A DNA stretch of 35,142 nucleotides from Candidatus Micrarchaeota archaeon (GTDB lineage Archaea; Micrarchaeota; Micrarchaeia; Anstonellales; Anstonellaceae): the NCBI GenBank assembly GCA_026396355.1, contig JAPLWY010000092.1, forward strand, positions 1 to 35,142, read 5' to 3'. How positions within the stretch are numbered: the stretch's first letter is position 1; each line of letters begins with the position of its first letter. Both the position numbers and the translations under genes were made by a program. Below, piece after piece: positions 1,304 through 29,098 of the stretch. The notes below the pieces were generated by a model. The model ran no database searches, had not been told where the DNA came from, and saw only the letters and a list, made by a program, of their open reading frames with translations.

Positions 1304-2392
1304 ATGGCTTTTGGCAAAAGGCGGTTTCCTGCAAAGAAGTCCGGCTCTCCCAGCGTGAGCTTCATATATGCGGGCAAGCTTGGCAGCGGCCTTGAAGCCA
1401 CGCTTACCCTTTACGAAGCGGCGAAACGCGAAGGATTCAGCTGCAGGCTGGTCCTCTCAACTGACAACTCCCGCCGCGCCCTTGTGGAACGGATTTACCC
1501 GGAGGCAAAGTTCATCAACTTCCTTTCCCCTGCCGAAGTTTTGGCCGAGGCGCGCGTCCTCTCAGGGAACATCGCCTTCTTCACCATGATTTCACCCAAG
1601 ATGTTCCCCCTCTTTTTCGCTGCGCGCGCAAAGAGGATATTCTACTTCCACGCATCCTATGACCGCGCATTCAATCCCCCTGGCGCCAGTTCCATATTTT
1701 CCGACAAATATTTCGACATTCTGCATTCGCTTGCCATAAGAAACTCGGACCTGGTGGTGGCAACACAACATCCCCTTGCCTGGCAAGTGAAAGTGCGCTT
1801 TGGCAAGGAGGCAGCCAGCCTTCTCCACCCGCCATTCTCCGTCCTGCGGAAGGGAATGTTCGACGAGTCAAAAAAGGTCGCGCTGCCTTTTTCACCGGGC
1901 GGCTATTTCCTTGATTTTGGGGGGCTTGACCGCCCCTATAAAGGCACTGATGTTCTTCTCAAGGCAGTGGACGGCACCCATCTTCCAACCGTGCTTGCGG
2001 GCAAGGCAAAGCTTCCCCCCCATGGAAAAAACGTCTTTCACATGTGCGGATGGCTTTCTGACGGGGAAATGCACTTCCTTGTGAAAAATGCAAAGTGCGT
2101 GGTGCTGCCCTATCTCTCAGCCTCGCAGTTTTCGGGCTGCATGGCGCTTGCATTTCACTTTGGCGTGCCGGTGGTTGCGCCTTTCTGCCCGGCATTCGAA
2201 GGCTGGATAGAGGAAGGCAAAACCGGCTGGTTCTTCCCGCAGGGAGACTGGCGCGGCTTGCGCGCCAAGATGGAATCGGTTGCCTCGGGCAAGGCGAAAT
2301 TCTCCAAATCCGCAATCGCGGGCAAGGAAAAGGAGATGGAATCCAAATCCCGCGCTGAGATTCGAAAGATTCTCGCACGCTTCATGCCCTAG
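1304..2392 (+). CDS. Family-4 (GT-B, group 1) glycosyltransferase
   Basis: 362-aa ORF preceded by GGAGG. The C-terminal half (GWLSDGEMHFLVKNAKCVVLPYLSASQFSGCMALAFHFGVPVVAP...EGWIEEGKTGWFF) matches the GT4 nucleotide-sugar binding region. Confidence 0.75.
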   Translation: MAFGKRRFPAKKSGSPSVSFIYAGKLGSGLEATLTLYEAAKREGFSCRLVLSTDNSRRALVERIYPEAKFINFLSPAEVLAEARVLSGNIAFFTMISPKMFPLFFAARAKRIFYFHASYDRAFNPPGASSIFSDKYFDILHSLAIRNSDLVVATQHPLAWQVKVRFGKEAASLLHPPFSVLRKGMFDESKKVALPFSPGGYFLDFGGLDRPYKGTDVLLKAVDGTHLPTVLAGKAKLPPHGKNVFHMCGWLSDGEMHFLVKNAKCVVLPYLSASQFSGCMALAFHFGVPVVAPFCPAFEGWIEEGKTGWFFPQGDWRGLRAKMESVASGKAKFSKSAIAGKEKEMESKSRAEIRKILARFMP

Positions 2393-2397
2393 CCATT

Positions 2398-3714
2398 TCA
2401 GCTTCGCCTGCTTTTCAAAAAATCGTGGAAGCACTCTGCAACATAACCGCGCATTTCATCAGTCAGGCCTGGGTAGACCCCTATCCAGAAAGTGCCGTTC
2501 ATTATGGTATCTGAATTTTCAAGCGAGCCCATCTTCTCGAACTTCCTGCTGCGATAGGCGGGCTGCCTCACCAGGTTGCCTCCAAACAGCATGCGCGTCT
2601 CAATGTTTTTCGACTCAAGATGGGCCACGATGTCGTTTTTGGAAAAGCCGGCGTCCTTTTTCACTGTGAGCGGGAAGCCAAACGGCGAAGGCTCGGCATT
2701 CGGGAGCTTTTTCGGCAGCACAAACGCCCATTCATAATCCTTCATCTGCCCAAGGTAAAATGCAAAATTCCCCTTCCTTTTTTCCACAAAGGCAGGCAGC
2801 TTTTTCAGCTGTGCGCAGCCCACCGCGGCCTGCATGTCGGTCACCTTAAGGTTGTAGCCTACATTCGAGTAGATGTACTTGTGGTCATAGCCATAGGGCA
2901 AGTCCCCCATTTTCCACTTGAAGCGCTTGCCGCAGGTGTCGCTCCTGCCTGCAGGGCACCAGCAGTCGCGGCCCCAGTCCCTGAAGGACTCTGCCAGCTT
3001 CTTGTGAACCGGCGAGGATGACATCACTGCTCCGCCCTCGCCCATGGTGATGTGATGGGCGGGATAAAAGCTCACAGTTGCCAATTCCCCGAACACGCCG
3101 ACAGGCTTGCCTGCGATTCTGGAGCCCACAGCATCGCAGCAGTCCTCTATCAGGTACATGCCGTGCTTTTTGGCAATGGCTGAAACAGCCGGGGCGTCAA
3201 ACGGGTTGCCCAGCGTGTGCGCAATCATTATGGCCTGCGCCCCTTTTTCCGCAGCCTCGGCAATCGAATCTGCGCTTGGGTTGTAAGTGCCAACCTCGGC
3301 GTCAACAAAAACCGGCAGCATCCCATTCTGGAAAATCGGATTTAGCGTGGTGGGGAAGCCCGTGGCGCAGGTGATCACCTTGTCGCCAGGCTTGAGCTTC
3401 TTTCCACCCAAAAAATCAGAAGTAAGGGCGGACAGCGCCACCAGGTTTGCAGACGAGCCGGAGTTCACAAGCGAGCAGTGCTTTGTGCCAAAAACAGCGG
3501 CGAACTCCTGTTCGAACCTTTCAGCATACCTTCCGGCAGTGAGCCAAAAGTCAAGCGAGGAATCCACCAGGGCAACGATTTCCTCCTCGTCATACACCCT
3601 GCCGGCATAATGCACCCTTGTTTTGCCCGGCACGAATTTTTCCTGCCTTGCGGACTCGTGGAACCTGGCGACCTTCTCCAAAATCTCCTTGCGAAGCTTG
3701 TCCTGTTCCATCAA
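2398..3714 (-). CDS. rfbH: CDP-6-deoxy-D-xylo-4-hexulose-3-dehydrase (E1; RfbH/DdhC type, DegT family)
   Basis: 438 aa, the typical RfbH length. Contains VNSGSSANLVALSALTS and SFYPAHHITMGEGG, where His replaces the PLP-Lys of DegT aminotransferases. That substitution is the E1 hallmark. Confidence 0.88.
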   Translation of the reverse strand: MMEQDKLRKEILEKVARFHESARQEKFVPGKTRVHYAGRVYDEEEIVALVDSSLDFWLTAGRYAERFEQEFAAVFGTKHCSLVNSGSSANLVALSALTSDFLGGKKLKPGDKVITCATGFPTTLNPIFQNGMLPVFVDAEVGTYNPSADSIAEAAEKGAQAIMIAHTLGNPFDAPAVSAIAKKHGMYLIEDCCDAVGSRIAGKPVGVFGELATVSFYPAHHITMGEGGAVMSSSPVHKKLAESFRDWGRDCWCPAGRSDTCGKRFKWKMGDLPYGYDHKYIYSNVGYNLKVTDMQAAVGCAQLKKLPAFVEKRKGNFAFYLGQMKDYEWAFVLPKKLPNAEPSPFGFPLTVKKDAGFSKNDIVAHLESKNIETRMLFGGNLVRQPAYRSRKFEKMGSLENSDTIMNGTFWIGVYPGLTDEMRGYVAECFHDFLKSRRS

Positions 3715-3717
3715 GAA

Positions 3718-4710
3718 TCAGCCAATCCGCTTTTTTCCAAAATAAGCCAAGTACCAGTCAATGGTCTCAGCAAGGCCTTCCTCAATGCCATACTTTGCCT
3801 TCCAGCCCAGCACCTCGCGCGCCTTTTTGGCCGACAGGTGCTGGTTGCGTATCTCCCCGCTTGCGCTGTTCTGCACTTTGGGCGCAATCGATTTTTTCAT
3901 GAGCTTGGAAATGAGCGAGACCATCTCAAGCGTGGTCATCTGCGCCTCGTTTGAGAAGTTGAACGCCTCTCCGCAAAGCGCTGGCTTGTACTTTTCGGCA
4001 AGCGTGAGATAAGCCGACACCGCGTCTTTGACGTAAATATAGTCCCGCACGTATTTTCCATCCGTCCTGATGACTGGCGCCTCATTCTTGCAAAGCGACT
4101 GTATGGTGCCTGGCACTATCCTGTTGAAGTTCAGGTCGCCTCCGCCGAAAAAGTTGCCGCAGCGCGAAATCGCAACAGGCAGCGAATAGGTCGCGGCATA
4201 AGACTGCGAAATCAGGTCAACGCAGCTTTTTGAAACATCATACGGATGCCTTCCCTGGAGCGGCGTATCCTCGGTGTAGGGCAGCACCTTCTGGTCCCCG
4301 TACGCCTTGTCCGACGATGCCACAATGATCTGCTCCACTGCCTTTCCATGCGTGCGGCACGCCTCCAGGAGATTCCAGGTTCCCTCGATATTCGCCCTGA
4401 AGGTGTGCAGCGGCGAGCGATTGGCAGTCTGGACAATGGTCTGCGCGCCAAGGTGGAATATGGTGGCCGGCTCGTACTCGTTTATCACCCTTTCAATAGC
4501 GTTCCTGTCCTCAAGTTCTCCTGCAGCCACTGTGACTTTTTTATCAAACCCTTCCGAAAAGAAACGCGAGTCGGGCACGCGGTCGCGCACCAGGCAGACC
4601 GGCTGCGCGCCCTGCGAAAGCAGCTCCTCCACCAGCCACGAGCCGACCAGGCCGCTGGCGCCGGTAAGCAGCACCTGCCTGCCATTCCAAAACGATGATG
4701 TTTTTGCCAT
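3718..4710 (-). CDS. rfbG: CDP-glucose 4,6-dehydratase (SDR family)
   Basis: MAKTSSFWNGRQVLLTGASGLVGSWL matches the RfbG N-terminus (xxFWxGKxVxVTGxTGFKGSWL). YDVSK is the YxxxK catalytic motif. I prefer the ATG at 4710 (GTGAT upstream) over the track start 4749, which would overlap rfbF. Confidence 0.82.
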   Translation of the reverse strand: MAKTSSFWNGRQVLLTGASGLVGSWLVEELLSQGAQPVCLVRDRVPDSRFFSEGFDKKVTVAAGELEDRNAIERVINEYEPATIFHLGAQTIVQTANRSPLHTFRANIEGTWNLLEACRTHGKAVEQIIVASSDKAYGDQKVLPYTEDTPLQGRHPYDVSKSCVDLISQSYAATYSLPVAISRCGNFFGGGDLNFNRIVPGTIQSLCKNEAPVIRTDGKYVRDYIYVKDAVSAYLTLAEKYKPALCGEAFNFSNEAQMTTLEMVSLISKLMKKSIAPKVQNSASGEIRNQHLSAKKAREVLGWKAKYGIEEGLAETIDWYLAYFGKKRIG

Positions 4711-4730
4711 ATTAATCACGCCTGCGCAAG

Positions 4731-5510
4731 CTACTTCCAGACTTTCCATGGGCGCTTGCCCTCATCCCACATGCCATTGAGCTCAAGATAGTCCTTGTAG
4801 GTGTCCATCGCGTGCCAAAATCCCTCATGCTTGTACATTGCAAGCTGTTTTTCCTTCACAAGCCGTTCCATGGGCTTTGTCTCAAGCGCGCAATTTTCAT
4901 CAATATCAAGATAATCGAACACATCCTTCTTGAAAACATAAAAGCCGCCGTTCACATAGTCATAAAGCACCGGCTTTTCCACAAAGGTCTCCACCAGCCC
5001 GTCCGTTCCTGGCTTTATGAGCCCTAGCTTGGAATGGGGGTGCACTGCGGTGAGCGTGCCTATCGTTTTCATTTTTCTGTGGAATTTCAGCTCATCCTCG
5101 ATGTTGGAGTCGATCAGCCCGTCCCCGTAAGTCAGGAAAAAATCATCCGTGCCGATGTACTTCTCAATTCTCTTTATCCGCGAGCCGGTGTTCGACTTCA
5201 GCCCGGTGTCCGCAAACGTTATTGTCCAGTCTTCAAAGTCCTTTGTCTTGTGTATCACGTCCCGCGCGCGGTCCGAGGTCTTTATTGTCACATCGTTGTG
5301 CATCATCTCATGCGTCATGAAAAACTGCTTTATCGAGTCTCCCTTGTAGCCCAGGCAAAGCACGAACTCGTTGTAGCCATAGTGCGAATACGTTTTCATG
5401 ATGTACCAAAGTATGGGCAGCCCGCCAATTGTCACCATGGGCTTTGGCTTGTATTCCGTTTCCTCGCGGAGGCGCGTTCCTTCCCCCCCGCACAAAATGA
5501 CCACTTTCAC
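4731..5510 (-). CDS. rfbF: Glucose-1-phosphate cytidylyltransferase
   Basis: (M)KVVILCGGEGTRLREETEYKPKPMVTIGGLPILWYIMKTYSHYGYNEFVLCLGYKG is near-colinear with RfbF/DdhA. About 259 aa. Start is GTG 5510 or TTG 5513. Confidence 0.88.
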   Translation of the reverse strand: MKVVILCGGEGTRLREETEYKPKPMVTIGGLPILWYIMKTYSHYGYNEFVLCLGYKGDSIKQFFMTHEMMHNDVTIKTSDRARDVIHKTKDFEDWTITFADTGLKSNTGSRIKRIEKYIGTDDFFLTYGDGLIDSNIEDELKFHRKMKTIGTLTAVHPHSKLGLIKPGTDGLVETFVEKPVLYDYVNGGFYVFKKDVFDYLDIDENCALETKPMERLVKEKQLAMYKHEGFWHAMDTYKDYLELNGMWDEGKRPWKVWK

Positions 5511-5655
5511 CAAAATCCCCCCGTACCCATGTTTTGCCCATGCTTTTTATTATACTTGCTCCCATTGCACACCAACTCTGTTCCCAACCACATGTATTTT
5601 AATTCATATTCATAGAATTTCATTCGCGCCCCCTATTTCGGGAACTGCGCGCATC

Positions 5656-6555
5656 ATGAGTGGGAAAATGGAAAAAGTGAAAGTGGCCATACTTGGCACA
5701 GGCAACATCGGCACCGATCTCCTAGTCAAGGTGATGCGCTCCAGCCATCTCGAATGCTCTCTTTTTGCAGGCAGGAGCAAGGACTCGCAAGGGATTGCGA
5801 GGGCGCGGGAAATGGGCATAAGCACAAGCACGGACTCTGTGGACGCGATACTTCGCGATCCAGGCTGCTGCGACATAGTTTTCGATTCCACCAATGCCGA
5901 GTCCCACCTGAAACATGCACTAGTGCTTGGCAAGCTGGGAAAATTCATGCTCGACCTCACTCCCTCAAAACTCGGTTTCATGTGCGTGCCCATTCTCAAC
6001 CTCAAGGAGTCGCTTTCCCACCAGGATATAAATCTCATAACCTGCGGAGGGCAGTCTTCCATCCCTTTTGCGCATGCCCTGATGGTATCCTGCCCGAAAA
6101 CAGAATACATCGAGCTTGCTTCAAGCATAGCCTCAAAGTCCGCCGGCCCAAGCACGCGCATAAACATAGATGAATATGTGCTGGCGACAAGGAAGGGCAT
6201 AGAGCATTTTACTGGCGTTAAGCGTGCAAAGGCAATGCTCAACCTTAATCCCGCGGAGCCCCCAATCAACATGCACAATACGCTTTATATGGAGACGAAA
6301 GACGAGCCTGACATCGGCACAATCCGGAAAAACGTCCTTGCTGTGGTGGAACAGATGAAGCGCTATACTCCGGGCGTGCACATTGTCGCCGGGCCGGTTT
6401 ATGAGGAAGGCAGGGTCACCCTGATAACCAGCGTGATCGGCGCCGGGGATTTCCTTCCGAAGTACGCGGGCAACCTGGACATAATGACTTGCGCAGCGGT
6501 TGCGGTCGCGGAAGAATACGCAAAAAGGACGGATGGCAAAGGTGCAAAACCATGA
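5656..6555 (+). CDS. dmpF: Acetaldehyde dehydrogenase (acetylating), DmpF/MhpF family
   Basis: MSGKMEKVKVAILGTGNIGTDLLVKVMRS (NAD fold) and the catalytic-Cys motif NLITCGGQSSIP. The track ORF start 5398 is an upstream extension across the divergent promoter. ATG 5656 (or 5668) fits the family N-terminus. Confidence 0.85.
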   Translation: MSGKMEKVKVAILGTGNIGTDLLVKVMRSSHLECSLFAGRSKDSQGIARAREMGISTSTDSVDAILRDPGCCDIVFDSTNAESHLKHALVLGKLGKFMLDLTPSKLGFMCVPILNLKESLSHQDINLITCGGQSSIPFAHALMVSCPKTEYIELASSIASKSAGPSTRINIDEYVLATRKGIEHFTGVKRAKAMLNLNPAEPPINMHNTLYMETKDEPDIGTIRKNVLAVVEQMKRYTPGVHIVAGPVYEEGRVTLITSVIGAGDFLPKYAGNLDIMTCAAVAVAEEYAKRTDGKGAKP

Positions 6556-7571
6556 AAGAGATACTCATAATCGATTCCACCCTGCGCGACGGCTCGCACG
6601 CGATGCGCCACCACTTCACTGCTGAAAATGTCCGTTCATATGCAGCTGCAGCAGAATCAGCCGGAGTGAAGGTGCTGGTGGTGGGGCACGGCAACGGGCT
6701 TGGCGCATCCTCCCTCCAAATAGGCAAGAGCCTGCTTTCCGACATGGAATATGTGTCGATTGCCATGAAAGAGCTGAAGAACACAAAGCTCGGGGTTCTC
6801 ACCGTCCCCGGGTTTGGCACGGTAAAAGATGACTTGGAGCCTGCAATCAAGGCTGGCGCGGAAGTGGTTTTCGTGACCTGCCACTGCACTGAGGCCGACA
6901 CCACGCAAAAGCACATCGAATACGTTTCATCAATCGGGAAAGAGGCGATAGGCGTGCTAATGATGACGCACATGCTCTCCCCCGAGGGGCTCCTGGAGCA
7001 GGCGCAAAAGATGCAAGGCTACGGGGCAAGCGGCATACTGCTCATGGACTCTGCCGGCGCTTCGCTCCCGCACGATGTCACTGCGAAAGTCTCGGCGCTG
7101 AAAAAAGGCCTCAATGTGAAAGTCGGCTTCCATGCGCACAACAACCTGGGCATGGCGGTTGCAAACGCCCTCGCTGCAGTTGAAGCCGGCGCCGCATTCA
7201 TAGACACCACCATGCGCGGGTACGGCGCAGGGGCGGGCAACTGCCCGATGGAAATCATAACCGCGGTGCTGCACAAGTCAGGCTACGCGACCGGCATGGA
7301 TGAATTCGCGCTCATGGGCATAAGCGACGGCATAGTGGCAAAGTTCATGAAAAAGCCGATTGAAATAGACGGCGTGCGGCTGGCAAGCGGGCTTGCAGGG
7401 GTTTTCTCCGGCTTCTGCCCGATTGCGGAGCGCGCAGGCGCGCGATTCGGCGTGGACCCGAAAGAGATACTCATGGAGCTTGGACGGCGCAAGATCGTGG
7501 CGGGGCAGGAGGATTACATAACCGAGGTCGCAATCGAGCTTGCCAAAAGAAAAAAAGAGACCAAGAAGTGA
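6552..7571 (+). CDS. dmpG: 4-hydroxy-2-oxovalerate aldolase, DmpG/MhpE family
   Basis: MKEILIIDSTLRDGSHAMRH and GFHAHNNLGMAVANALAAVEAGAAFIDTTMRGYGAGAGNCPME match the DmpG metal and pyruvate site motifs. Its start overlaps the dmpF stop (ATGA at 6552-6555). Confidence 0.85.
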   Translation: MKEILIIDSTLRDGSHAMRHHFTAENVRSYAAAAESAGVKVLVVGHGNGLGASSLQIGKSLLSDMEYVSIAMKELKNTKLGVLTVPGFGTVKDDLEPAIKAGAEVVFVTCHCTEADTTQKHIEYVSSIGKEAIGVLMMTHMLSPEGLLEQAQKMQGYGASGILLMDSAGASLPHDVTAKVSALKKGLNVKVGFHAHNNLGMAVANALAAVEAGAAFIDTTMRGYGAGAGNCPMEIITAVLHKSGYATGMDEFALMGISDGIVAKFMKKPIEIDGVRLASGLAGVFSGFCPIAERAGARFGVDPKEILMELGRRKIVAGQEDYITEVAIELAKRKKETKK

Positions 7572-7587
7572 TTGTTTGGGTGAGCCT

Positions 7588-9276
7588 ATGCACAGCGGAA
7601 AAATCAGGGTGGCTGATTACATATCCGGCTTCGTTGCAGGCAAGGGCATTTCAAAGATTTTCATGGTCGTCGGCGGGCTGAGCATGCATCTTGCGGATGC
7701 GTTTGCCAATGAAAAAAGGATGGGGTATGTCTCCATGCACCATGAGCAGGCGTGCGTGATGGCTGCTGAAGGATATGCAAGGGAAACCAGGACAGTGGGC
7801 GTGGCCTGCGTGACAGGCGGGCCTGGCGCGGTGAACACGGTCACCGGCGTGGTGAGCGCGCATTTCGATTCCTCCCCTGTCATAGTGTTTGCAGGGCAGA
7901 CAAAAGTCGAAGTCATCAAGGCAGAGGGCGTGCGGCAGTTCGGAGTGCAGGGTTTCGAGACCCTTCCGATATTCAAGCCGATAACCAAATACGCCGTTCT
8001 TATCGAAGACCCCGAAAAAGTGAAGTATTATCTTGAAAAGGCATATCATCTTTGCACCAGCGGGCACCCAGGGGTGGTGTGGATCGAGGTGCCCCTTGAT
8101 GTTCAAGGTGCGCTTATAGACCCTGGCAAGCTTGCCGGCTACGACCCCTCATCGGAAGAAAAGCCCATTCCGCACGATGAAGTGGCGCGCGCCGCGCAAA
8201 ATGCGGTTGCGCTCATCAAGGAATCCAAGCGGCCATTGCTTTTGATCGGCAACGGAGTGCGGCTCTCAAAATCAGAGGAAACCGCGGTCAAGGCCGCAGA
8301 AGCGCTCGGGCTTCCGATCATCACCTCCAGGAATGCCATTGACGCCATCGGCTCGGATCATCCGCTATTCATAGGGCGCCCTGGGACATACGGGACAAGG
8401 CCTGCCAATTTCGCAGCGCAGACCTGCGACCTGCTGCTCATAGTCGGCTGCAGGCTCAGCATGTCGCTTACCGGCTACAACTACTCTGATTTCGCCAAGG
8501 ATGCAAAAAAAATAATGGTGGACATCGACTGCTACGAGCTTAACAAGCCAAGCACTGCGAATTTCGGCATCAAAGTCGTTGCCGATGCCGGCGTTTTTCT
8601 CCAGGAGCTTTTGGCCGCTGCGGAAAAGGGCGGCATCAAAAGGAAAGACGCGTGGATTGCGCGCTGCCAGTCCTGGAAGGCAAGATACCCTGCCGTCCTC
8701 CCGGAATATTCTGAGGACAAGGATGGCATAAACTCATATTATTTCACAGGCAGGCTTTCCGAGCACATGGGGCCGCAGGATACTCTTGTGGTGGACACAA
8801 GTTCATGCTTCCATGTGGTGGCCCAGGCATTCCGCGTGAAAAAGGGCCAAAAATACATAACCACAGGAGGGCTTTCACCGATGGGATTCATGCTGCCTGC
8901 GGCAATAGGCGTTGCAAGCGTGAAAAAAAACGGGCGCACGGTCGGAATAGTGGGGGATGGCAGCCTGCAGATGAACATCCAGGAACTGCAGACAATCGTG
9001 CATTATAAGCTGCCGCTGAAGCTCTTTGTCTGGAACAACAACGGCTATCTGCTGATCAGGCACACGCAGAACAATTTCCAGGATGGCAGGCTGGTTGGCG
9101 AGGGGCCAAAAAGCGGGCTTTCCTGCCCTGACACGAAAAAGATAGCCGAGGCCTACGGCATCCCGTTCATGCGTGTTTCAAGGATAGCCGATCTTGACTT
9201 GGCAATCGAGAAGACCCTGCAGCATGACGGGCCGATGATCTGCGAAATAATCACCCCGGAAAACCAGCTTGTGTGA
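7588..9276 (+). CDS. ThDP-dependent acetolactate-synthase-like enzyme (YerE-like candidate); C-terminal tail displaced into another frame
   Basis: MHSGKIRVADYISGFVAGKGISKIFMVVGG begins the ThDP pyrimidine-binding domain. The ThDP motif is VGDGSLQMNIQELQT...WNNNGY. A further tail (..SKPFADMFPFLGKEAYLKETNVENPD*) is readable in another frame at 9279..9359. ATG 7588 is chosen over the TTG at 7540, which overlaps dmpG. Confidence 0.8.
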   Translation: MHSGKIRVADYISGFVAGKGISKIFMVVGGLSMHLADAFANEKRMGYVSMHHEQACVMAAEGYARETRTVGVACVTGGPGAVNTVTGVVSAHFDSSPVIVFAGQTKVEVIKAEGVRQFGVQGFETLPIFKPITKYAVLIEDPEKVKYYLEKAYHLCTSGHPGVVWIEVPLDVQGALIDPGKLAGYDPSSEEKPIPHDEVARAAQNAVALIKESKRPLLLIGNGVRLSKSEETAVKAAEALGLPIITSRNAIDAIGSDHPLFIGRPGTYGTRPANFAAQTCDLLLIVGCRLSMSLTGYNYSDFAKDAKKIMVDIDCYELNKPSTANFGIKVVADAGVFLQELLAAAEKGGIKRKDAWIARCQSWKARYPAVLPEYSEDKDGINSYYFTGRLSEHMGPQDTLVVDTSSCFHVVAQAFRVKKGQKYITTGGLSPMGFMLPAAIGVASVKKNGRTVGIVGDGSLQMNIQELQTIVHYKLPLKLFVWNNNGYLLIRHTQNNFQDGRLVGEGPKSGLSCPDTKKIAEAYGIPFMRVSRIADLDLAIEKTLQHDGPMICEIITPENQLV

Positions 9277-9360
9277 TTTCAAAGCCGTTTGCCGACATGT
9301 TCCCTTTCCTTGGCAAAGAGGCATACCTGAAGGAAACAAACGTGGAAAATCCGGATTGAC

Positions 9361-10131
9361 ATGGCAAAAAAAATCCTCCTCACTGGCGGCGCCGGATTCA
9401 TTGGCAGGAATATTTCAGAGCAGCTGGGGGCGTCATACGAAATATCCTGCCCTGCGCGGGCAGAGCTTGACCTTCTTGATGCCGATGCGGTTCGGCGCTA
9501 CTTGAAAGGCAACGGATTCGATGCTGTCCTGCACGCAGCCAACATCGGCGGCACCAGGAAGACTGCCGGCATGGCAGGGGTGGCGGAGTCCAACCTCAAA
9601 TGCTTCATGAACATCGCGCAATGCTCTTCTTATTTCGGGAAAATGATCCAGCTTGGCTCCGGCGCGGAATATGACAAGAGCCGCCCCCTTGTGCGCGTGC
9701 GCGAGGAGGAATTCGGCAAGCGCGCGCCGCAGGACGAATACGGGCGCTACAAGTACGAATGCTCGAAATACATCGAGCAGGCAAGCAACATCACCTGCCT
9801 GCGCATATTCGGGTGCTTCGGGAAATACGAGGACTACGAGATCCGCTTCATCTCAAACGCAATCTGCAAGTCGATTTTCGGCCTGCCGATAACAATCGCC
9901 AACAAGAACGCAGTCTTCAGCTATCTCTATATTGATGATTTTGTGCGCATAGTGGAGCATTTCATCGGGCATGATGGCGCGCACAAGTTCTACAACGCCG
10001 TGCCTGATGAAACAGCCGACCTTGTCACAATCGCAGGCAAGGTGAAGGAAATCTCAGGGAGCAGCCTGCCTGTTGCCGTGAAAAATCAAGGCATGGGGAA
10101 CGCATACACCGGCGACTACTCTCGCCTCTAA
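9361..10131 (+). CDS. NAD(P)-dependent sugar epimerase/reductase (extended SDR), interrupted by in-frame TAA
   Basis: MAKKILLTGGAGFIGRNI is a Rossmann motif, and YECSK is YxxxK. After the TAA at 10129-10131 the same frame continues with SELPNFKFTSLDKGIRSLHSWYIANKEKI..., a typical SDR C-terminus, up to the TGA at 10249-10251. Confidence 0.75.
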   Translation: MAKKILLTGGAGFIGRNISEQLGASYEISCPARAELDLLDADAVRRYLKGNGFDAVLHAANIGGTRKTAGMAGVAESNLKCFMNIAQCSSYFGKMIQLGSGAEYDKSRPLVRVREEEFGKRAPQDEYGRYKYECSKYIEQASNITCLRIFGCFGKYEDYEIRFISNAICKSIFGLPITIANKNAVFSYLYIDDFVRIVEHFIGHDGAHKFYNAVPDETADLVTIAGKVKEISGSSLPVAVKNQGMGNAYTGDYSRL

Positions 10132-10250
10132 TCAGAACTTCCCAATTTTAAGTTCACCAGCCTTGACAAAGGGATAAGAAGCCTGCATTCCTGGTATATT
10201 GCGAACAAGGAAAAAATCGAATATGGAAAGATAGCGTCTGACCGCTACTG

Positions 10251-11444
10251 ATGTGCTTGGCTATGGCATTGCAACTCTCCGACCGGATGGCGAGCGTTTC
10301 CTACGAGATACGCGACATAATCGCGCGCGCAAAGAAAGTCGAGGCAGGCGGCAGGAAAATCCACTATTTCAACATCGGCGACCCGAACAGTTTCGGCTTC
10401 GCGCCTCCGCAGCACGTGACAGATGCAGTAATGGCGGCACTTTCGGACAAGAAATACAGCGCATACTGCCCCTCAAAAGGCGACCCGCAGCTCTGCGACG
10501 CAATCGGGAAAATCGAGGGATTGGGCGGGGAGGACGTGACAATACATTCCGGCCTGTCCGAGGGAATAGAGTTTCTCATGTCTGCGCTGGTGAACCCCGG
10601 CGAGCACGTTCTCCTTCCTTCGCCTTCGTATCCCCTTTACATCACCAAGCTGCGCATCCTCGGAGGAGGCGAGAATTATTACCCGTGCGACTCCGAGTTT
10701 GTGCCAGACATCGACGCGATGCGCGCCAGGATAAACGGAAAGACGCGGGCAATCGCAGTGATAAACCCCAACAATCCGACTGGGGCAAGCTACCCTCGCA
10801 AAATACTAAAGGGCGTCGCAGACCTCGCAGCCGAATTCAAGCTGCCTATAATAGCCGACGAAATCTACGACAGGCTCACCCTGGACGAAGGGCACGCGGT
10901 CAACATGCGCGATGTTGCCTCCCCTGACCAGCTGCTCGTCTCTGGCAATGGCATTTCCAAGAATTTCATCTACCCTGGCGCGCGCGTGGGCTACCTTGCA
11001 TTCCACGGGGAAGGGATCGGGAAGCTGCGCGATGCCATTGTAAAGCTTTGCAACCAGCGCCTGTCAATCAATTGGGAAATGCAGCGCGGCGCCCTGGCGG
11101 CATTCACCTTGCCTGAAAGCCACCTGGGCGAGTTTAGGGCGGCTCTCCGCCTCAGGCGCGACATTGTCCACAAGCGGCTCAACGAAATTCCAGGGATTTC
11201 CTGCGTCAAGCCCAAGGCTGCATTCTATTCGTTCCCCAAGGTGGAGGCGGCATCATTCAAGGACGACCGGGAATTCACCTATAGTCTCCTGGAAGAAACA
11301 GGCGTATTGGTCGTGCCAGGGTCGAATTTCTCGCCAATTCTTGGGGAGAAGCACTTCAGGCTGGTTTTTCTTGCCCAGCCATCCGAGCTTGAGGAGGCGA
11401 TGTCCAAGCTTGATGGTTTCATGAGAAAGAAGCCCAAATCCTGA
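10251..11444 (+). CDS. Alanine aminotransferase-type class I PLP aminotransferase
   Basis: SYEIRDIIARAKKVEAGGRKIHYFNIGDP, INPNNPTGA and SGNGISKNFIYPGARVGY (PLP Lys) are colinear with archaeal AlaAT as I recall it. The start could also be ATG 10263 or 10287. Confidence 0.82.
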   Translation: MCLAMALQLSDRMASVSYEIRDIIARAKKVEAGGRKIHYFNIGDPNSFGFAPPQHVTDAVMAALSDKKYSAYCPSKGDPQLCDAIGKIEGLGGEDVTIHSGLSEGIEFLMSALVNPGEHVLLPSPSYPLYITKLRILGGGENYYPCDSEFVPDIDAMRARINGKTRAIAVINPNNPTGASYPRKILKGVADLAAEFKLPIIADEIYDRLTLDEGHAVNMRDVASPDQLLVSGNGISKNFIYPGARVGYLAFHGEGIGKLRDAIVKLCNQRLSINWEMQRGALAAFTLPESHLGEFRAALRLRRDIVHKRLNEIPGISCVKPKAAFYSFPKVEAASFKDDREFTYSLLEETGVLVVPGSNFSPILGEKHFRLVFLAQPSELEEAMSKLDGFMRKKPKS

Positions 11445-11524
11445 TTTTAGGATCTGAAAAAAACAATGGCAGCCGGATTCGCCGCCTCCAGCAATTATTA
11501 ACCCTAGCTTCAAATATCCTCCCC

Positions 11525-13177
11525 ATGGCAGAAGAGGACGCGGCAACACACTCCCACGAAGTGGCACGGGGCAGTTTCTGGGGGCTTTTTGGCACGATTG
11601 CGCTCAAGATAGTCTCATTCGCATATGCAATCTACGTTGCGCGCGCATTCTCGCAGGAGAATGTGGGGCTATTCTACCTTTCCCTATCTGTGATATCATT
11701 GATCGGCTTCTGGCGCAACCTTGGATTGCCCTCAGCCCTCCAGCGCTACGTGCCATATTTCGAGGCAAAAAACCAGGGGGGCAAGATAATATCGCTTCTC
11801 AAGATAAGTTTTGTTGCAAACGCGCTTCTTGGCGTGATGCTATTCATCATGATCTTCGTTCTTGCAGACCCTATCGGCGCAATCTACAAAAGCCCGGGGC
11901 TGTCGGACGGGCTGCGCCTGCTTGCGGCATACGTGCTTTTTGAAAACCTATACAGCGTATCGCTCAGCTTCCTTCAGGGAAGGCGGGACATCAAGTCCTA
12001 CCAGTTCCTGAACAATGTGCAAAACGTTGCGAAATTGGCGCTCACCGTCATTCTCTTCAGCTTTTTCGGCGCCACGCTTTTCACCCTGTCGGCAGCATTC
12101 ATACTCGCGTATGCGGCGGTATTCTTGCTGAGCATTCCAATGCTGCTGCGCAAGGCATCCGACGTTCCTTCATCAGGGGAGGCGATGAGCGCGTCAGAGG
12201 TCCTGCACGACATCATCCCGTTCGGAATCACGCTTACCATCGTCCAGAGTTTCTGGATACTGATTTCCTCGACAGACCGTGCGCTTCTCGGATATTTTGG
12301 CAATCCTGCAACATCTGTGGAAACGGTCGCAATTTATTCAATAGCGTCGCAGCTCGCGCTTACCATCATGGTATTCCCAAGCGCGGTGGGCAGCATTTTC
12401 CTTCCGGTCATTTCCCGCCTTGTAGGGAAGGGGGATCGCAGTGCCATGCTCAAAGTCATCCAGACTTCCCAGCGCTGGATACTTTTCATCACCATCCCGG
12501 TCGCGCTTGCCACCATGGCTTTTGCAGGCGAGATGCTCTCGGTTTTCTACGGGGGTTCCTACCGCTCAGGCGCAAATGCAATGTCGATATTCATTCTCGG
12601 CCTGCTTTTCTCAACATTAACCTACCCGATCTCGCTTGCGCTTGCGGGCATGCGCCTGGTCCGCCTTGAGCTTTATGTTGCAATCGCATGCGCAGTGGTC
12701 AACCTTGCACTGAACGTATTTCTCATTCCATTTTTTGGCATGGAGGGCGCGTCAGCGGCATCCGCAGCGGCATTCCTTATCTCAGCATGGATGTTCGAGC
12801 GCTATGGCAGGCAATACCTTTCCTACCGCACGCCGAGCGGCATTTACAAGCTGTTTGCGGCCGGTGCAGTCGCGTTTGCCGCGATACTTCTCCTAAAACC
12901 CCTTGCCGGCATCATAGTTTCACTTGTGCCGCCAGTCGGATCAGGCGAGTTTGCGATTTACTCCGCAAAATTCGTCTACTTGGCTGCGCTTGGCGTGATG
13001 GGGGGCATCGGGCTTGTAATATTCGGCGCGGTGGCGCTTTTATTGCGCACTTTCAAGCACGAGGACATAAGCTTGATGCGCTCTGCTGCGAAAAAGACGC
13101 CTCTCCCTCAAAAAATTATCCTGTTTGCTGAAAAAATCGCCCTTTTGGGAGTTGAAAGCGGGAAAAGAGCAGCTTAG
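11525..13177 (+). CDS. Polysaccharide/oligosaccharide flippase (MOP/Wzx, AglR-like)
   Basis: 550-aa protein that is almost entirely hydrophobic helices, with the usual Wzx architecture. It sits inside the glycan operon. Confidence 0.7.
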   Translation: MAEEDAATHSHEVARGSFWGLFGTIALKIVSFAYAIYVARAFSQENVGLFYLSLSVISLIGFWRNLGLPSALQRYVPYFEAKNQGGKIISLLKISFVANALLGVMLFIMIFVLADPIGAIYKSPGLSDGLRLLAAYVLFENLYSVSLSFLQGRRDIKSYQFLNNVQNVAKLALTVILFSFFGATLFTLSAAFILAYAAVFLLSIPMLLRKASDVPSSGEAMSASEVLHDIIPFGITLTIVQSFWILISSTDRALLGYFGNPATSVETVAIYSIASQLALTIMVFPSAVGSIFLPVISRLVGKGDRSAMLKVIQTSQRWILFITIPVALATMAFAGEMLSVFYGGSYRSGANAMSIFILGLLFSTLTYPISLALAGMRLVRLELYVAIACAVVNLALNVFLIPFFGMEGASAASAAAFLISAWMFERYGRQYLSYRTPSGIYKLFAAGAVAFAAILLLKPLAGIIVSLVPPVGSGEFAIYSAKFVYLAALGVMGGIGLVIFGAVALLLRTFKHEDISLMRSAAKKTPLPQKIILFAEKIALLGVESGKRAA

Positions 13178-13185
13178 GTGCGTTT

Positions 13186-14550
13186 ATGGCATTATTCGGG
13201 ACCAATGGCGTGCGCGGAAAGCTCGATTCCCTTTCCCCGCAGCTTGCATACGATCTTGCAGGCGCATTTTCCGGCTGGTGCAAGCCTGGCAGCATCATGC
13301 TTTCGCGCGACATGCGGCTCACCTCCCCAATGTTCCATTCTGCGGCAATGGCAGGCATACTCGCCTCTGGGCGGGACTGCGTCGATATCGGGCTTGCCTC
13401 CTCTCCGGTTTCGGAGTTCATGCTTGCAAAAAGGAAATGCGCCGGGCTGATAATAATTACAGCTTCCCACAACCCTCCAGAATGGAATGCGCTCAAGTTT
13501 GTGGATGGCGAGGGCAGGGCGCTTTCGCGCGAGCGCGGGCAAGCTATTGAAAAGGCAGTGCTTGATGGCAGCTGGGCGCGCGCAGGCTGGGATTCTGCCG
13601 GCAAATGCGAAGCTGTGCGGGAAGCGGCCGCAATCCACTCATCATCAGCGCTGAAATTCCTGGATGCCCTGAAAATACAAAAGCAAAAGCTGCGCGTTGT
13701 CCTTGACTTTGGCAATGGCACCTCTGCGCTCTCGCAGGGGCTTTTCGAATCGCTTGGCTGCGAAGTTATTGCGCTCAATGAAAAAATAGACGGCAGGTTC
13801 CCCGGCAGGCCATCCGAGCCGTCCGAGGCGAATGTGCAGGGGCTTTGCAAGGCGGTGCGCGGGAATTCCGCAGACTTTGGAGTGGCGTGGGACGGGGACT
13901 CTGACCGCGTAGTGTTTGTAGACGAGCGCGGGCAATGGATAGTGGGCGACAAAGGGTTTGCAGTCTCCGCGCTTTCCGCCTGCAAAAAAGCAGGGAAAAG
14001 AAAGAAAAAATTCGTGGTGACCACAGTTGCCACCAGCAGGTGCGTTGAGGAAGCATGCGCCAAAGAGGGCGCAAAGACAATTTACACCAAGGTTGGCGCG
14101 CCCTATATTTCTGAAGAGATGGTGCGGCTTGGGACAAGTGCGGTTTCCGGCGGCGAGGAGGTTGGCGGGATAATCTGGCCAGAATTCTCGCTTGCAAAGG
14201 ACGGGATATTTTCTGCCGCGAAAATAGCCGAGCTGGTGTGCGGCCAAAAGCTGTCCAGCCTGGTTTCCGAGCTTCCGACTTACTGCAATTCCAAAACAAA
14301 AGTGGCAGTCGATGGCGAGGCTGCCAAGAAGGCAGGGCTACAGGCCGCGCTTGCGGCTGCAAAAGAAAGCAAGGGGAAAATCACCACGATTGACGGCGTG
14401 CGCGCTGACTTTGAAGACGGCTGGGCGATAGTGCGCGCATCAGGCACCGAGAACTACATGCGCATATTTGCCGAAGGCAAGACGCAGAAGCGGGCAGACG
14501 CGCTTATGAAGGAATTTAAGGATGCTGCCGAACAAACAGTGCAGGTTTGA
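13186..14550 (+). CDS. glmM: Phosphoglucosamine mutase / phosphohexomutase
   Basis: LFGTNGVRG, the active-site ITASHNPPEWNALKF and the metal loop GVAWDGDSDR. Confidence 0.85.
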   Translation: MALFGTNGVRGKLDSLSPQLAYDLAGAFSGWCKPGSIMLSRDMRLTSPMFHSAAMAGILASGRDCVDIGLASSPVSEFMLAKRKCAGLIIITASHNPPEWNALKFVDGEGRALSRERGQAIEKAVLDGSWARAGWDSAGKCEAVREAAAIHSSSALKFLDALKIQKQKLRVVLDFGNGTSALSQGLFESLGCEVIALNEKIDGRFPGRPSEPSEANVQGLCKAVRGNSADFGVAWDGDSDRVVFVDERGQWIVGDKGFAVSALSACKKAGKRKKKFVVTTVATSRCVEEACAKEGAKTIYTKVGAPYISEEMVRLGTSAVSGGEEVGGIIWPEFSLAKDGIFSAAKIAELVCGQKLSSLVSELPTYCNSKTKVAVDGEAAKKAGLQAALAAAKESKGKITTIDGVRADFEDGWAIVRASGTENYMRIFAEGKTQKRADALMKEFKDAAEQTVQV

Positions 14551-14556
14551 TTCTGT

Positions 14557-15679
14557 ATGAAAATAATCCACGCATTCGGGAGCCGCGCCTGCGCCATCAA
14601 GATGGCGCCCCTCATCAAGGAAGGGGCGAAAAGGGGGCATAAGAATATCGTGGTCTGGAGCGGCCAGCACTACGACGACAATTTGTACCGGGACCTGTTC
14701 GACGACCTTGAAATCCCGCGCCCTGATTATGACATAGAAGCAAAGGGGAGCGCATGCGAAATCGGCGCCAAGATACTTGTTGATTTTGAGAAAATCTGCA
14801 AGAAGGAGCAGGCAGACATTGTTCTCACCCATGGGGACACCTTCACTGCGATGTTCTTTTCGCAGGCAGCCGCGCTCTCGCTTACCCCGGTCGGGCATGT
14901 TGAAGCCGGTTTGCGCACATATTCCTGGGAGCCCTATCCCGAGCAGATCTGCACCAAAGCTTCGGATGCCTGCTCGGCTTTGTTCTTTGCCGCAACGGAC
15001 AAGAATGCTAGTGACCTGCTGTCCGAGCACGTGCCTGCGGACAGGCTATTCACCGTCGGCAACAGCATAGTCGACGCCGCGCTGCAGCACGCCGAGCTTG
15101 CAAGGAAAAAGAGCGACGCCTTGGCGCGGTTCGGCATCAAAAAGCCCCTTGTCTTCTGGTCCTGCCACAGGAAGGAAAACATGCTGTCAGTGTCCCGCAT
15201 GCGCGGCATATTCGAAAGCCTTCTTGAAATGACTGATGCGAATTTCTTCTGCTCTGTCCTTCCCTCCACTCAGCTCATTGCCGAAAAAAGCGGCTATATC
15301 GATAAGATCAGAAAAGCAAAGCACATAATCTGGGAGCCCTGCCTTCCAAAATACACCGATGCCCTGCGCCTGATGCTTGAGGCTGACCTGGTCCTTACCG
15401 ATTCCGGAGGCATGCAGGAAGAGTGCGCTGCGCTACATATCCCCTGCCTTGACCGACCGCCCTGAAAGCGTCTCTGCCGGAGCCAACAAGTGCGTGGGCT
15501 GCGAGAAGGAAAACATAATGCGCGAGGCGCGCGCGGTCCTGTTCGAAAAGGGCGTGGCGCAAAAGATGCGGTCAGCCGCAAACCCTTATGGGGATGGAAA
15601 AACGTCAGGCAGGATTTTTGACATAATAGAAAAATTCAAGGGAAGAATGGAACGCTGGGAGAATAAGGTGCATGCCTAG
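14557..15679 (+). CDS. wecB: UDP-N-acetylglucosamine 2-epimerase (non-hydrolysing), reading frame broken near 15450
   Basis: The N-terminal 302 aa (..THGDTFTAMFFSQAAALSLTPVGHVEAGLRTY..DSGGMQEECAALHIPCL) stop at 15465. The family C-terminus (TDRPESVSAGANKCVG...ANPYGDGKTSGRIFDII) continues in the +1 frame to 15679. Confidence 0.8.
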
Positions 15680-20645: not shown

Positions 20646-20654
20646 CAAACACAC

Positions 20655-23766: not shown

Positions 23767-24620
23767 ATGGACAATTCAATAATTTCTCAAACAGACCTCA
23801 AATTAAAGCAGTTCTCGCGCGGAAAGGTGCGCGACACTTATGAGCTGCCTGACGGCAATCTTCTGATGGTGGCATCAGACAGGCTCTCTGCATTCGACGT
23901 TATTTTCCCTGACGGAATACCGAAAAAAGGAAGAGTGCTCACGCAGCTCTCACTGTTCTGGTTCGAGCGGCTCAAGGGAATTGTGGACAGCCACCTGATT
24001 ACTTCTGAAGTGCCCTCAGGCTTGCCCGATTACCTTGAAGGCAGGTGCATGGTGGTGAAAAAGGCAAAGATAATCCCGCTTGAATGCGTGGTGCGCGGCT
24101 ATCTTGCCGGTTCGGGCTGGAAAGAATACCAGAAAAGCGGCACAGTTTGCGGGATAAAACTGCCTGCTGGCTTGAAAAACGCAAGCAAGCTTCCCACGCC
24201 AATTTTCACTCCCTCCACAAAAGCGGAAAAAGGGAAGGGAAAAAGCTGGTTGGGGCAGAAACATTCGATTCAGTCCGCGCACTTGCACTAAAAATTTACT
24301 CAACAGCAGCAGACTATGCCAAAACGCGCGGCATAATTCTTGCAGACACGAAATTCGAATTCGGCTTTTACAACGGGAAAATAATTCTGGTGGACGAGGC
24401 GCTCACGCCGGATTCTTCGCGCTACTGGCCAGAGGAATCATATAAGGAAGGCATTTCCCCCCCCTCATATGACAAGCAGTTTGTGCGCGACTATGTGGAG
24501 AAACTGGGCTGGAACAAATTGCTCCCAGCGCCTCGCCTTCCTGCTGATATAATAAGCAAGACAACCGGAAAATACGTTGAAGCATACGAGCGGCTGACCG
24601 GGAAAAAATTCCAGTATTAG
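23767..24620 (+). CDS. purC: SAICAR synthetase, frame broken near 24230-24245
   Basis: The N-terminal part [26 protein letters not shown]...[12 protein letters not shown] stops at 24291. The family continuation [42 protein letters not shown]...DSSRYW runs in another frame to 24620. Confidence 0.85.
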
Positions 24621-25671: not shown

Positions 25672-25763
25672 GTGTTTTGTAGCAAGGCTGGCGCGCGCCG
25701 CCCGAAGAAAGCCTTAAATTACTGTCGGCTTATATCGCCATCCTCTGAAGCAAGGTGATTCTT

Positions 25764-26226
25764 ATGTCAAAAGTTACAATACCTGCAATCGTGGAAGGCG
25801 GAAAGGCAAACGCAGGCCCGCCCCTGGGCCCGGCACTCGGACCGCTCGGAGTCAACATAGGCGGGATAATCGACGAGATAAACAAGAAGACAAAGGATTT
25901 TGCAGGGCTTAAAATCCCGATCAAGGTAATAGTGGACAAAGCCTCCAAGAAATTCTACAGGCGAGCTTCTCAAAAAAGAGGCTGGCGTGGAAAAAGGCAA
26001 GAAAGGCGGTGCTGACGACCCCAAGGTGGTTGGCAACCTGACATTTGAGCAAGCAGTCAAAGTCGCAAGAATGAAGACTGCCGGTTCCTTGGTGCGCGAC
26101 CTGAAAAACGGAGTGAAAGAAGTGCTTGGCACCTGCGTTTCCCTTGGAATAACCATCGAGGGAAAAGACGGGCGGGCGGTTATTGCCGAGGTCGATGCTG
26201 GCAAGCACGACTCTGCGCTTGCCTAG
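25764..26226 (+). CDS. rpl11: Ribosomal protein uL11, frame broken at about 25956
   Basis: MSKVTIPAIVEGGKANAGPPLGPALGPLGVNIGGIIDEINKKTKDFAGLKIPIKVIVDKASKKF is followed in the next frame by TGELLKKEAGVEKGKKGG..KVVGNLTFEQAVKVARMK...EVLGTCVSLGITIEGKD. GGTGAT lies 6 nt upstream of the ATG. Confidence 0.85.
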
Positions 26227-28908: not shown

Positions 28909-28919
28909 AACACCTTATC

Positions 28920-29087: not shown

Positions 29088-29098
29088 ATCACACACCT

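Follow-up and report, generated by a model that had tools for sequence, protein, structure and literature searches.

The stretch of DNA analysed here, 35,142 nucleotides from contig JAPLWY010000092.1 of a Candidatus Micrarchaeota archaeon (assembly GCA_026396355.1; hereafter the window), carries two adjacent genes, dmpF and dmpG, for an acylating acetaldehyde dehydrogenase and a class II pyruvate aldolase. It is very probable that they encode a biosynthetic pair of the ErwJ/ErwI type, and that this pair is part of an erwiniose-type cassette for a cytidine diphosphate (CDP)-linked branched sugar in a DPANN archaeon. The gene identities, the operon structure, the conservation of the gene set, and the clustering and sequence signatures of the thiamine diphosphate (ThDP) enzyme encoded next to the pair are all observed directly, and the donor specificity of ErwE and the order of the steps are taken from published work (PMC9306805); by analogy, the archaeal enzyme set would do the same as the Erw set. 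The main new point is the presence of an erwiniose-type cassette in a DPANN archaeon; the use of the pair itself was already described in 2022.

Gene content of the cassette

The genes that make up the cassette lie in two divergent groups, which together occupy 2398-10251. Locus numbers such as L001 denote homologous loci used for comparison, and SDR stands for short-chain dehydrogenase/reductase.

5656..6555, + strand: dmpF/bphJ/erwJ-like acylating acetaldehyde dehydrogenase (299 aa; TIGR03215, PF09290)
6552..7571, + strand: dmpG/bphI/erwI-like class II pyruvate aldolase (339 aa; TIGR03217, HMGL-like, DmpG_comm)
7588..9276, + strand: YerE/ErwE-like ThDP carboligase (562 aa as assembled; TPP_enzyme_N, M and C domains)
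9361..10251, + strand: YerF/ErwF-like NAD(P)H SDR, predicted reductase of the branch carbonyl (PF01370)
4731..5513, - strand: rfbF, glucose-1-phosphate cytidylyltransferase (TIGR02623, 285 bits, under the cut-off of 300; 83% identity to L001)
3718..4749, - strand: rfbG-like NDP-hexose 4,6-dehydratase (top NCBIfam match TIGR02622, 208 bits, under the cut-off of 278; syntenic in relatives)
2398..3714, - strand: rfbH (E1), CDP-6-deoxy-4-hexulose 3-dehydrase dependent on pyridoxamine 5'-phosphate and [2Fe-2S] (NF011936, 665 bits, cut-off 423)

The TGA of dmpF and the ATG of dmpG share the tetranucleotide ATGA at 6552-6555, and a 16-nt spacer separates the dmpG stop codon (7569-7571) from the ATG of the ThDP gene at 7588. 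A second possible ATG for dmpF is located at 5668, where the alignment of its relatives begins.

Both proteins are genuine members of the DmpF and DmpG families. The dmpF product scores 351 bits against TIGR03215 (NCBIfam equivalog cut-off 282) and matches the AcetDehyd-dimer domain (PF09290) with an E-value of 6.7e-43. It contains the NAD-binding motif GTGNIG and a catalytic cysteine, Cys130, in CGGQ (LITCGGQSSIP), which aligns with 7Z3S, and it is 64-80% identical to the L001 and L004 orthologues. The dmpG product scores 395 bits against TIGR03217 (equivalog cut-off 286), matches DmpG_comm (PF07836) with an E-value of 1.2e-24 and is 43% identical to DmpG (1NVM_A). Its residues R12, D13, H16, H194 and H196 correspond to DmpG R17, D18, H21, H200 and H202 and are invariant across 120 homologues. 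The original prediction had proposed a DmpF/DmpG pair, coupled through an ATGA overlap, 16 nt upstream of a ThDP gene and with no catabolic neighbours. The open reading frames (ORFs) and the family scores bear this out, and no gene for meta-cleavage or other catabolism (hydratase, dioxygenase or hydrolase) was found within the 35-kb window. The family assignment needs one refinement: the aldolase belongs to a distinct subfamily, referred to below as Phe-type.

RfbH contains the arrangement C193-X57-C251-X-C253-X7-C261, matching C-X57-C-X-C-X7-C, which we take to be the [2Fe-2S] motif of E1 as known from Yersinia pseudotuberculosis, and it has a His at the position of the pyridoxal 5'-phosphate Lys (AHH site, FYPAHHITMGEGG). 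The rfbG-like product is probably a CDP-glucose 4,6-dehydratase.

Comparison with the erwiniose pathway

The erwiniose cluster of Pectobacterium atrosepticum SCRI1043 encodes ErwE, ErwF, ErwI and ErwJ beside the genes for CDP-4-keto-3,6-dideoxyglucose (Steitz et al. 2022, PMC9306805). ErwE is a YerE-like ThDP enzyme, ErwF a reductase, ErwI a BphI-like pyruvate aldolase (43% similar to BphI) and ErwJ a BphJ-like acetaldehyde dehydrogenase (PMC9306805). Purified ErwE accepts 4-hydroxy-2-oxopentanoate (4-hydroxy-2-oxovalerate) and its C4 and C6 analogues for coupling with a ketone that stands in for the sugar (PMC9306805). Pyruvate and acetaldehyde are not accepted (PMC9306805; PMC12247030), and for this reason an aldol step after branching was excluded by the authors of that work. 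The deduced order of the pathway is acetaldehyde supply by ErwJ, aldol addition to pyruvate by ErwI, C4 branching by ErwE and reduction by ErwF (PMC9306805), and it is repeated in a 2025 review (PMC12247030).

The window and the erwiniose cluster have in common the DmpF/DmpG pair, a YerE-like ThDP enzyme, an NAD(P)H reductase, the CDP-4-keto-3,6-dideoxyglucose genes and the proposed logic, and their aldolases are at a similar distance from catabolic BphI/DmpG (approximately 43%). They differ in setting: the erwiniose cluster is that of a gammaproteobacterium and serves the O-antigen of lipopolysaccharide (LPS), whereas the window is that of a DPANN archaeon and presumably serves a surface glycan or N-glycan. 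The window also differs in its extra class I aminotransferase, in the Leu at the position of BphI Leu87 and in its damaged ThDP and reductase genes.

If the archaeal enzymes act in the same manner, RfbF, RfbG and RfbH (E1), together with an unlinked electron donor, would produce CDP-4-keto-3,6-dideoxy-D-glucose. The DmpF-like enzyme would convert acetyl-CoA and NAD(P)H to acetaldehyde, and the DmpG-like aldolase would join acetaldehyde and pyruvate to form 4-hydroxy-2-oxopentanoate, its Phe gate permitting the (4R) enantiomer. The YerE-like ThDP enzyme would decarboxylate this donor and transfer the C4 unit onto the C-4 keto group of the CDP-sugar, and the SDR would reduce the branch carbonyl. 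Glycosyltransferases, a GT4-family initiating transferase and a Wzx-like flippase would bring the finished sugar into a surface glycan.

The original prediction had suggested just such a synthetic direction, with 4-hydroxy-2-oxovalerate as the donor and a C4 branch as the product; by analogy, this is supported by the biochemistry of ErwE (PMC9306805, PMC12247030) and by the comparative surveys below. It had also regarded this use of the pair as undescribed. Because the erwiniose pathway was published for Pectobacterium in 2022 (PMC9306805), that claim of novelty fails, and the mechanism stands instead on experimental precedent. The literature found on DmpFG with O-antigen consisted of catabolic or genome papers only, and nothing was found on Micrarchaeota with 4-hydroxy-2-oxovalerate aldolase or on YerE with archaea.

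Conservation of the gene set

Gene neighbourhoods were surveyed from both sides of the proposed pathway. The ThDP-side survey covered 80 loci from GTDB genomes. The aldolase-side survey covered 80 metagenome loci, sorted by the residue at the position of BphI Tyr290; the Phe-type count was restricted to loci flanked on each side by 2.5 kb or more, and a ThDP gene was counted if it was within 6 kb.

The closest homologues of the ThDP enzyme (58-71% identity) and of the aldolase (62-90% identity) come from metagenome-assembled genomes (MAGs) named Micrarchaeia, Micrarchaeota, Parvarchaeota and Bilamarchaeaceae. The window shares synteny with a Micrarchaeia contig (L001/L002) over the whole stretch that extends from rfbH to HMG-CoA reductase. 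These homologues and this synteny, along with the genes in the window for a UbiA-type prenyltransferase, FtsZ and an AMP-phosphorylase-like protein, point to a DPANN (Micrarchaeota-like) host.

The cassette of rfbF/G/H, dmpF, dmpG, ThDP and SDR genes is found in the DPANN MAGs L001, L166, L167 and L004/L005, the names of which place them in Micrarchaeia, Micrarchaeota or Bilamarchaeaceae, and in Methanoregulaceae and Methanocellaceae MAGs (L007, L082). Its bacterial carriers are Lysinibacillus fusiformis (L003) and Fibrobacteres and Clostridia MAGs. In the ThDP-side survey, dmpFG adjoins the ThDP gene in L003, L006, L007, L009 and L082, and on the short contig L011 only dmpG is visible beside it; in each case the ThDP enzyme is at least 45% identical to that of the window. 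In contrast, dmpFG is present at none of the 67 loci with a ThDP enzyme 36-43% identical to that of the window, approximately 45 of which carry rfbH. The aldolase-side survey shows a similar division. A YerE-like ThDP gene is present at 22 of 25 Phe-type loci, with rfb genes as well at 21 of these 22, whereas neither ThDP nor rfb genes were found near Tyr-type aldolases (0/16 loci). The neighbourhood survey that the original prediction had called for thus finds dmpFG conserved with the sugar and ThDP genes in DPANN, in methanogen MAGs and in several bacterial phyla. Many of the longest contigs in the two match lists coincide in size, which suggests that there are further co-located aldolase/ThDP pairs.

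In L003 (JBBCZH010000009.1), the order rfbH-rfbF-rfbG-dmpF-dmpG-ThDP-SDR extends over 4463-12900, beside NeuB, CMP-sugar synthetase and MptE-like genes and near FlaG/FliD. This position in a flagellin-glycosylation island suggests a C4-branched sugar on flagellin in Lysinibacillus fusiformis.

One ThDP homologue is on a 1.8-kb contig labelled 'uncultured Gammaproteobacteria' (L008, CAZSLG010000124.1). Its nearest relatives (84-100% identity) are mostly without a source name; only two are named, both of them as Patescibacteria MAGs. A homologue search seeded with L008 returned relatives from Patescibacteria, Omnitrophota and Elusimicrobiota only. This contig may be mis-binned. A tblastn search of plasmids gave only ordinary acetolactate synthases, with at most 34% identity.

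Subclass and probable donor of the ThDP enzyme

The top PDB match of the window's ThDP enzyme is 8RPH (403 bits, residues 1-560), recognised from its CDG motif as the YerE-like enzyme JanthE, while acetolactate synthases reach at most 243 bits. On a neighbour-joining tree, the dmpFG-linked ThDP enzymes group together, as two neighbouring groups. There are departures from this pattern on both sides: L063, which has no dmpFG, branches beside one of the two groups, and the L004/L005 enzymes (45% identical to that of the window, with dmpFG present) cluster apart.

The dmpFG-linked enzymes have 16 group-specific positions, which are concentrated in active-site segments. These enzymes have the signature RQFGVQG, as compared with RQLGDQE in 69/69 others, and the signature TSRLG, at the Arg position of which the others have Trp, Ile, Phe or Met. 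Further segments that distinguish the two sets are VDTGSCFH (GNGTACV in the others), TTGGLS (NSGCAS) and GYLLI (GYLSI). On sequence grounds, this signature may mark donor-chain specificity, and it could aid biocatalysis groups that mine YerE-like carboligases. JanthE, the closest solved structure, has the Gly of the QG position (G122 in the window) as do the dmpFG-linked enzymes, but it differs in having a CDG rather than a GDG ThDP motif, in being donor-promiscuous and in being without the other signature residues.

The ThDP enzyme might instead form a yersiniose-type C2 branch from pyruvate or acetaldehyde, in which case DmpF and DmpG would balance the pools of these compounds or extend the acetyl branch after its attachment. 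The founding member of the YerE-like subclass, to which the window's enzyme belongs, does use pyruvate, and JanthE takes it among other donors (PMC12247030). The YerE/YerF system for yersiniose A in Yersinia pseudotuberculosis also resembles the window in its acceptor sugar, its rfbF/G/H-type genes, its ThDP subclass and its use of a reductase after branching. However, with pyruvate as the donor and a C2 branch as the product, YerE needs no aldolase or dehydrogenase. The window has dmpFG, and its ThDP enzyme, unlike the YerE type, clusters with the dmpFG-linked group and has other residues in the active-site segments. In addition, ErwE, from the sole characterised cluster with the same gene set, refuses both pyruvate and acetaldehyde, and dmpFG is missing at all 67 surveyed loci where the ThDP enzyme falls in the 36-43% range, enzymes from which the dmpFG-linked ones are set apart on the tree. 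A C2 branch is thus very unlikely, and the management of acetaldehyde and pyruvate pools, which the original prediction had offered as its alternative, is not favoured. Transfer of a C4 unit from 4-hydroxy-2-oxopentanoate remains the preferred reading.

Stereo-gate of the aldolase

In an alignment to DmpG (1NVM), Phe285 of the window's aldolase is at the position of DmpG Tyr291 (BphI Tyr290), while Leu83 and Val85 are at the positions of BphI Leu87 and Leu89. Phe is found at the Tyr290 position in 120/120 of the closest homologues and in every ThDP-linked aldolase; the three catabolic PDB enzymes 1NVM, 8IH7 and 4LRS have Tyr. BphI is strictly (4S)-specific, a Y290F substitution abolishes its stereocontrol, and the L87N/Y290F and L87W/Y290F variants are (4R)-specific (PMC3962088). 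ErwE uses the (R)-donor (PMC9306805), and a Phe stereo-gate in the linked aldolases fits the (4R) donor that it takes.

At the position of BphI Leu87, the Phe-type subfamily has Phe at 31 loci, His at 17, Tyr at 9 and Leu at only 3. The Tyr-type loci have Leu at this position in 16/16 cases and at that of BphI Leu89 in 14/16, which is the catabolic configuration. Judged by residue identity, the natural pairs of Phe, His or Tyr with Phe appear to mirror the two-residue solution of the engineered (4R)-specific BphI variants. The Phe-for-Tyr substitution serves as a subfamily marker of biosynthetic, ThDP-linked DmpG-like aldolases, and this marker and the signature of the linked ThDP enzymes are the additions of the present analysis. 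Where a Phe-type DmpG occurs in a small genome, annotation pipelines should not infer aromatic catabolism or acetaldehyde metabolism from it.

The gate also bears on classical catabolism, in which aromatic or steroid meta-cleavage would end with the cleavage of 4-hydroxy-2-oxovalerate by the pair. Both proteins are above the cut-offs of the catabolic equivalog hidden Markov models, and the pair is like DmpFG of Pseudomonas sp. CF600 (1NVM) and BphIJ of Paraburkholderia xenovorans in its folds, communication domain, catalytic residues and adjacent, coupled genes. Those systems, however, are catabolic (aldol cleavage, acetaldehyde to acetyl-CoA) and strictly (4S), whereas the direction in the window would be reversed. 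They have the gate Tyr and SSFNYG, as compared with Phe and SSLQIG in the window, where the context is one of glycan biosynthesis. Furthermore, the 35 kb hold no catabolic gene, the host is an archaeon with a small genome, and Tyr-type and Phe-type aldolases have non-overlapping contexts in the survey. A catabolic role is extremely improbable; the gene context and the absent Tyr gate effectively refute it.

Damaged genes and other points against the assignment

Several observations weigh against the assignment of the pair to an erwiniose-type cassette. First, orthology to ErwE, ErwI and ErwJ (WP_011093010, WP_011093013 and WP_011093012, respectively) is argued from gene content and family. Second, the Phe-type loci L119, L141 and L158 have ample flanking sequence and no ThDP gene. 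Third, the window's aldolase and its nearest relatives retain Leu at the position of BphI Leu87, so relaxed rather than inverted enantioselectivity is predicted for them. Fourth, neither the window nor the related cassettes examined yielded a gene for an E3 (AscD/RfbI-type) reductase, despite the Fe-S motif of RfbH, so that a generic donor of electrons has to be assumed. Fifth, the ThDP enzyme is approximately 600 aa in length in relatives and the ORF in the window ends at 562 aa, without the conserved C-terminal residues (approximately 37). Sixth, the SDR gene has an in-frame TAA at 10129-10131, where relatives have Lys (AAA to TAA).

The two lesions in the cassette can be described in some detail. 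Relative to L001, the ThDP gene is missing 40 nt after ...PENQLV, which results in an immediate TGA; the deleted stretch includes the nearly invariant P, R, S and G of the IPRVSSEK..DG motif. The C-terminus (ISKPFADMFPFLGKEAY...) is still readable in another frame, and this remnant matches the tail of the homologues P0001 and P0003.

9277..9359, + strand: out-of-frame ThDP C-terminal remnant (ISKPFADMFPFLGKEAYLKETNVENPD, followed by a stop codon 1 nt ahead of the SDR start)

In the SDR gene, the frame is conserved for 38 codons past the TAA, to a TGA at 10249-10251, and tblastn gives 65% identity to the L001 SDR over 292 aa, across the stop.

These lesions could mean that the cassette is inactive in this genome, the ThDP and reductase genes being pseudogenes and DmpF and DmpG being either relics or a source of free 4-hydroxy-2-oxopentanoate only. 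The frameshifting 40-nt deletion, the TAA of the SDR gene and a frameshift in the WecB gene all fit such an explanation, as does the identity of the truncated products to the proteins deposited for the 39,548-bp NCBI contig. However, the genes for PurC and ribosomal protein L11 are also frameshifted, and those for FtsZ and AMP phosphorylase have lost stretches of sequence in addition to being frameshifted; FtsZ, for example, is 328 aa in length, compared with 369-373 aa in cluster mates of at least 90% identity. The lesion sites in the window are 9274-9359, 10129-10131, approximately 15440-15679, 23767-24620, 25755-26226, 28900-29250 (- strand) and 30300-30800 (- strand). Because housekeeping genes in the same 35 kb are likewise broken, the damage is attributed to poor assembly or consensus or to a defective variant, and not to decay of this pathway. 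The out-of-frame remnants are well conserved, and dmpF, dmpG and rfbFGH are intact. Poor assembly more probably accounts for the lesions, and an inactive cassette is unlikely.

Two explanations for the lesions were rejected. Reassignment of the stop codon was considered for the SDR TAA, but only this one in-frame stop occurs, all the remaining lesions being frameshifts or deletions, and genes elsewhere terminate as expected. Pseudogenisation specific to the pathway is at odds with FtsZ, L11 and PurC being equally broken.

Aminotransferase in the operon

The gene that follows the SDR gene is absent from most related cassettes.

10251..11444, + strand: class I/II (alanine-aminotransferase-like) aminotransferase (PF00155; NF006230, 381 bits, under the cut-off of 534)

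Its ATG overlaps the ancestral SDR stop codon as TGATG, an arrangement indicative of translational coupling, and the gene is kept at the same position in L004/L005 (82% identity). It is absent from L001, L003, L166, L167 and nearly all surveyed loci. As it is restricted to L004/L005 among the relatives, the aminotransferase is treated as accessory; its membership in the core cassette was ruled out by its absence from nearly all related loci. Candidate roles are pyruvate supply, amination of a 2-oxoacid and amination of the branch.

This gene raises the possibility that DmpFG, the ThDP enzyme and the aminotransferase together make a free small molecule, such as an acyloin or 4-hydroxynorvaline derived from 4-hydroxy-2-oxopentanoate. 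An aminotransferase of the 2-oxoacid type, coupled to the SDR gene and conserved in position in L004/L005, would suit this role. On the other hand, almost all other cassettes are without it, rfbF/G/H and the SDR gene accompany dmpFG and the ThDP gene across domains, and the ThDP enzyme belongs to the YerE-like subclass, which accepts ketones. We consider a free product highly improbable and retain the branched CDP-sugar as the probable product of the cassette.

Variation among related cassettes

An HpcH/HpaI-family aldolase gene is inserted between dmpG and the ThDP gene in L004 (11023-11787), L005 (8067-8831) and L167 (9007-9795), and likewise in approximately 12 of the metagenome loci L086-L165. 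Unlike the window, the relatives L004/L005 and L167 thus combine DmpFG with an HpcH aldolase. L004 is the nearest locus to the window by its aldolase (90% identity), but its ThDP enzyme is just 45% identical. Taken together, this mismatch and the HpcH variants suggest that donor-forming and donor-using genes have been swapped as modules.

Similar logic is found in the clusters for caryophyllose (Mycobacterium marinum MMAR_2331/2332) and gastriose and in the C6-branched cluster of R. palustris, which combine an aldolase-made, hydroxylated 2-oxoacid with a YerE-like ThDP enzyme and a reductase. They differ from the window in that their aldolases are of the HpcH/HpaI family and their donors are C6-C7, whereas the DmpFG-type module is the only one in the window.

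The closest homologues of the Phe-type aldolase and the ThDP enzyme are mostly from ultra-small or episymbiotic lineages: DPANN, Patescibacteria (candidate phyla radiation, CPR), Omnitrophota and Elusimicrobiota. This bias could reflect either inter-domain transfer in shared habitats or the composition of the databases.

A broader proposal is that DPANN, CPR, Omnitrophota and Elusimicrobiota cells bear surfaces with long-branched 3,6-dideoxyhexoses made by a modular cassette that has crossed domains, and that in the lineage of the window a Leu/Phe aldolase of relaxed stereocontrol, together with the operon-coupled class I aminotransferase, gives a stereoisomeric or aminated branch as yet unseen in glycans. 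In this proposal the modules may be DmpFG alone, DmpFG with an HpcH aldolase, and different ThDP enzymes. As a joint claim this is quite unlikely. An erwiniose-type cassette in the window would in itself take the unifying scheme for long-branched sugars beyond (myco)bacterial LPS and into the archaea, where it would concern host-dependent DPANN cells, the surface glycans of which are essentially uncharacterised.

Flanking genes and other features

The remaining features discussed here flank the cassette or lie between its two divergent groups.

1304..2392, + strand: GT1-family glycosyltransferase (PF13692, PF00534)
5514..5655, no strand: divergent rfbF/dmpF intergenic region (142 nt), containing the stretches TTTTTATTATA and TTTTAATTCATATTCATA
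11525..13177, + strand: Wzx/MurJ-like flippase (PF01943, PF13440, PF03023; syntenic in L001 and L004)
13186..14550, + strand: PGM/PMM-family phosphohexomutase, named GlmM in the original prediction (PGM_PMM domains I-IV; 65% identity to L001)

From its position, the GT1-family glycosyltransferase is a candidate transferase of the branched sugar, and the phosphohexomutase could be the source of glucose-1-phosphate. Promoters are presumed to be present in the intergenic region. Further downstream, on the same strand as dmpF, are genes for a WecB-like epimerase and a nucleotidyltransferase; on the opposite strand are genes for an epimerase, a GT4-family initiating transferase, a 582-aa membrane protein and HMG-CoA reductase. 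The setting originally described for the pair, among CDP-sugar genes, an SDR, a flippase, a mutase and WecB, is therefore correct in outline, but that description missed the aminotransferase at 10251-11444, the truncations of the ThDP and SDR genes and the WecB frameshift.

RNA scans identified no tRNA genes in the window and one 5S rRNA gene (31978-32092, - strand; Rfam RF00001, 79.7 bits), far from the dmpFG locus. As this distant gene was the only match, there is no indication of a riboswitch or other RNA element near dmpF.

The 582-aa protein (18906-20654, - strand) is a multi-pass membrane protein with a C-terminal soluble domain and no Pfam match. It is 34% identical to its counterpart in L001, where it also adjoins the GT4-family initiating transferase gene, and is a candidate glycan polymerase or oligosaccharyltransferase-like protein.

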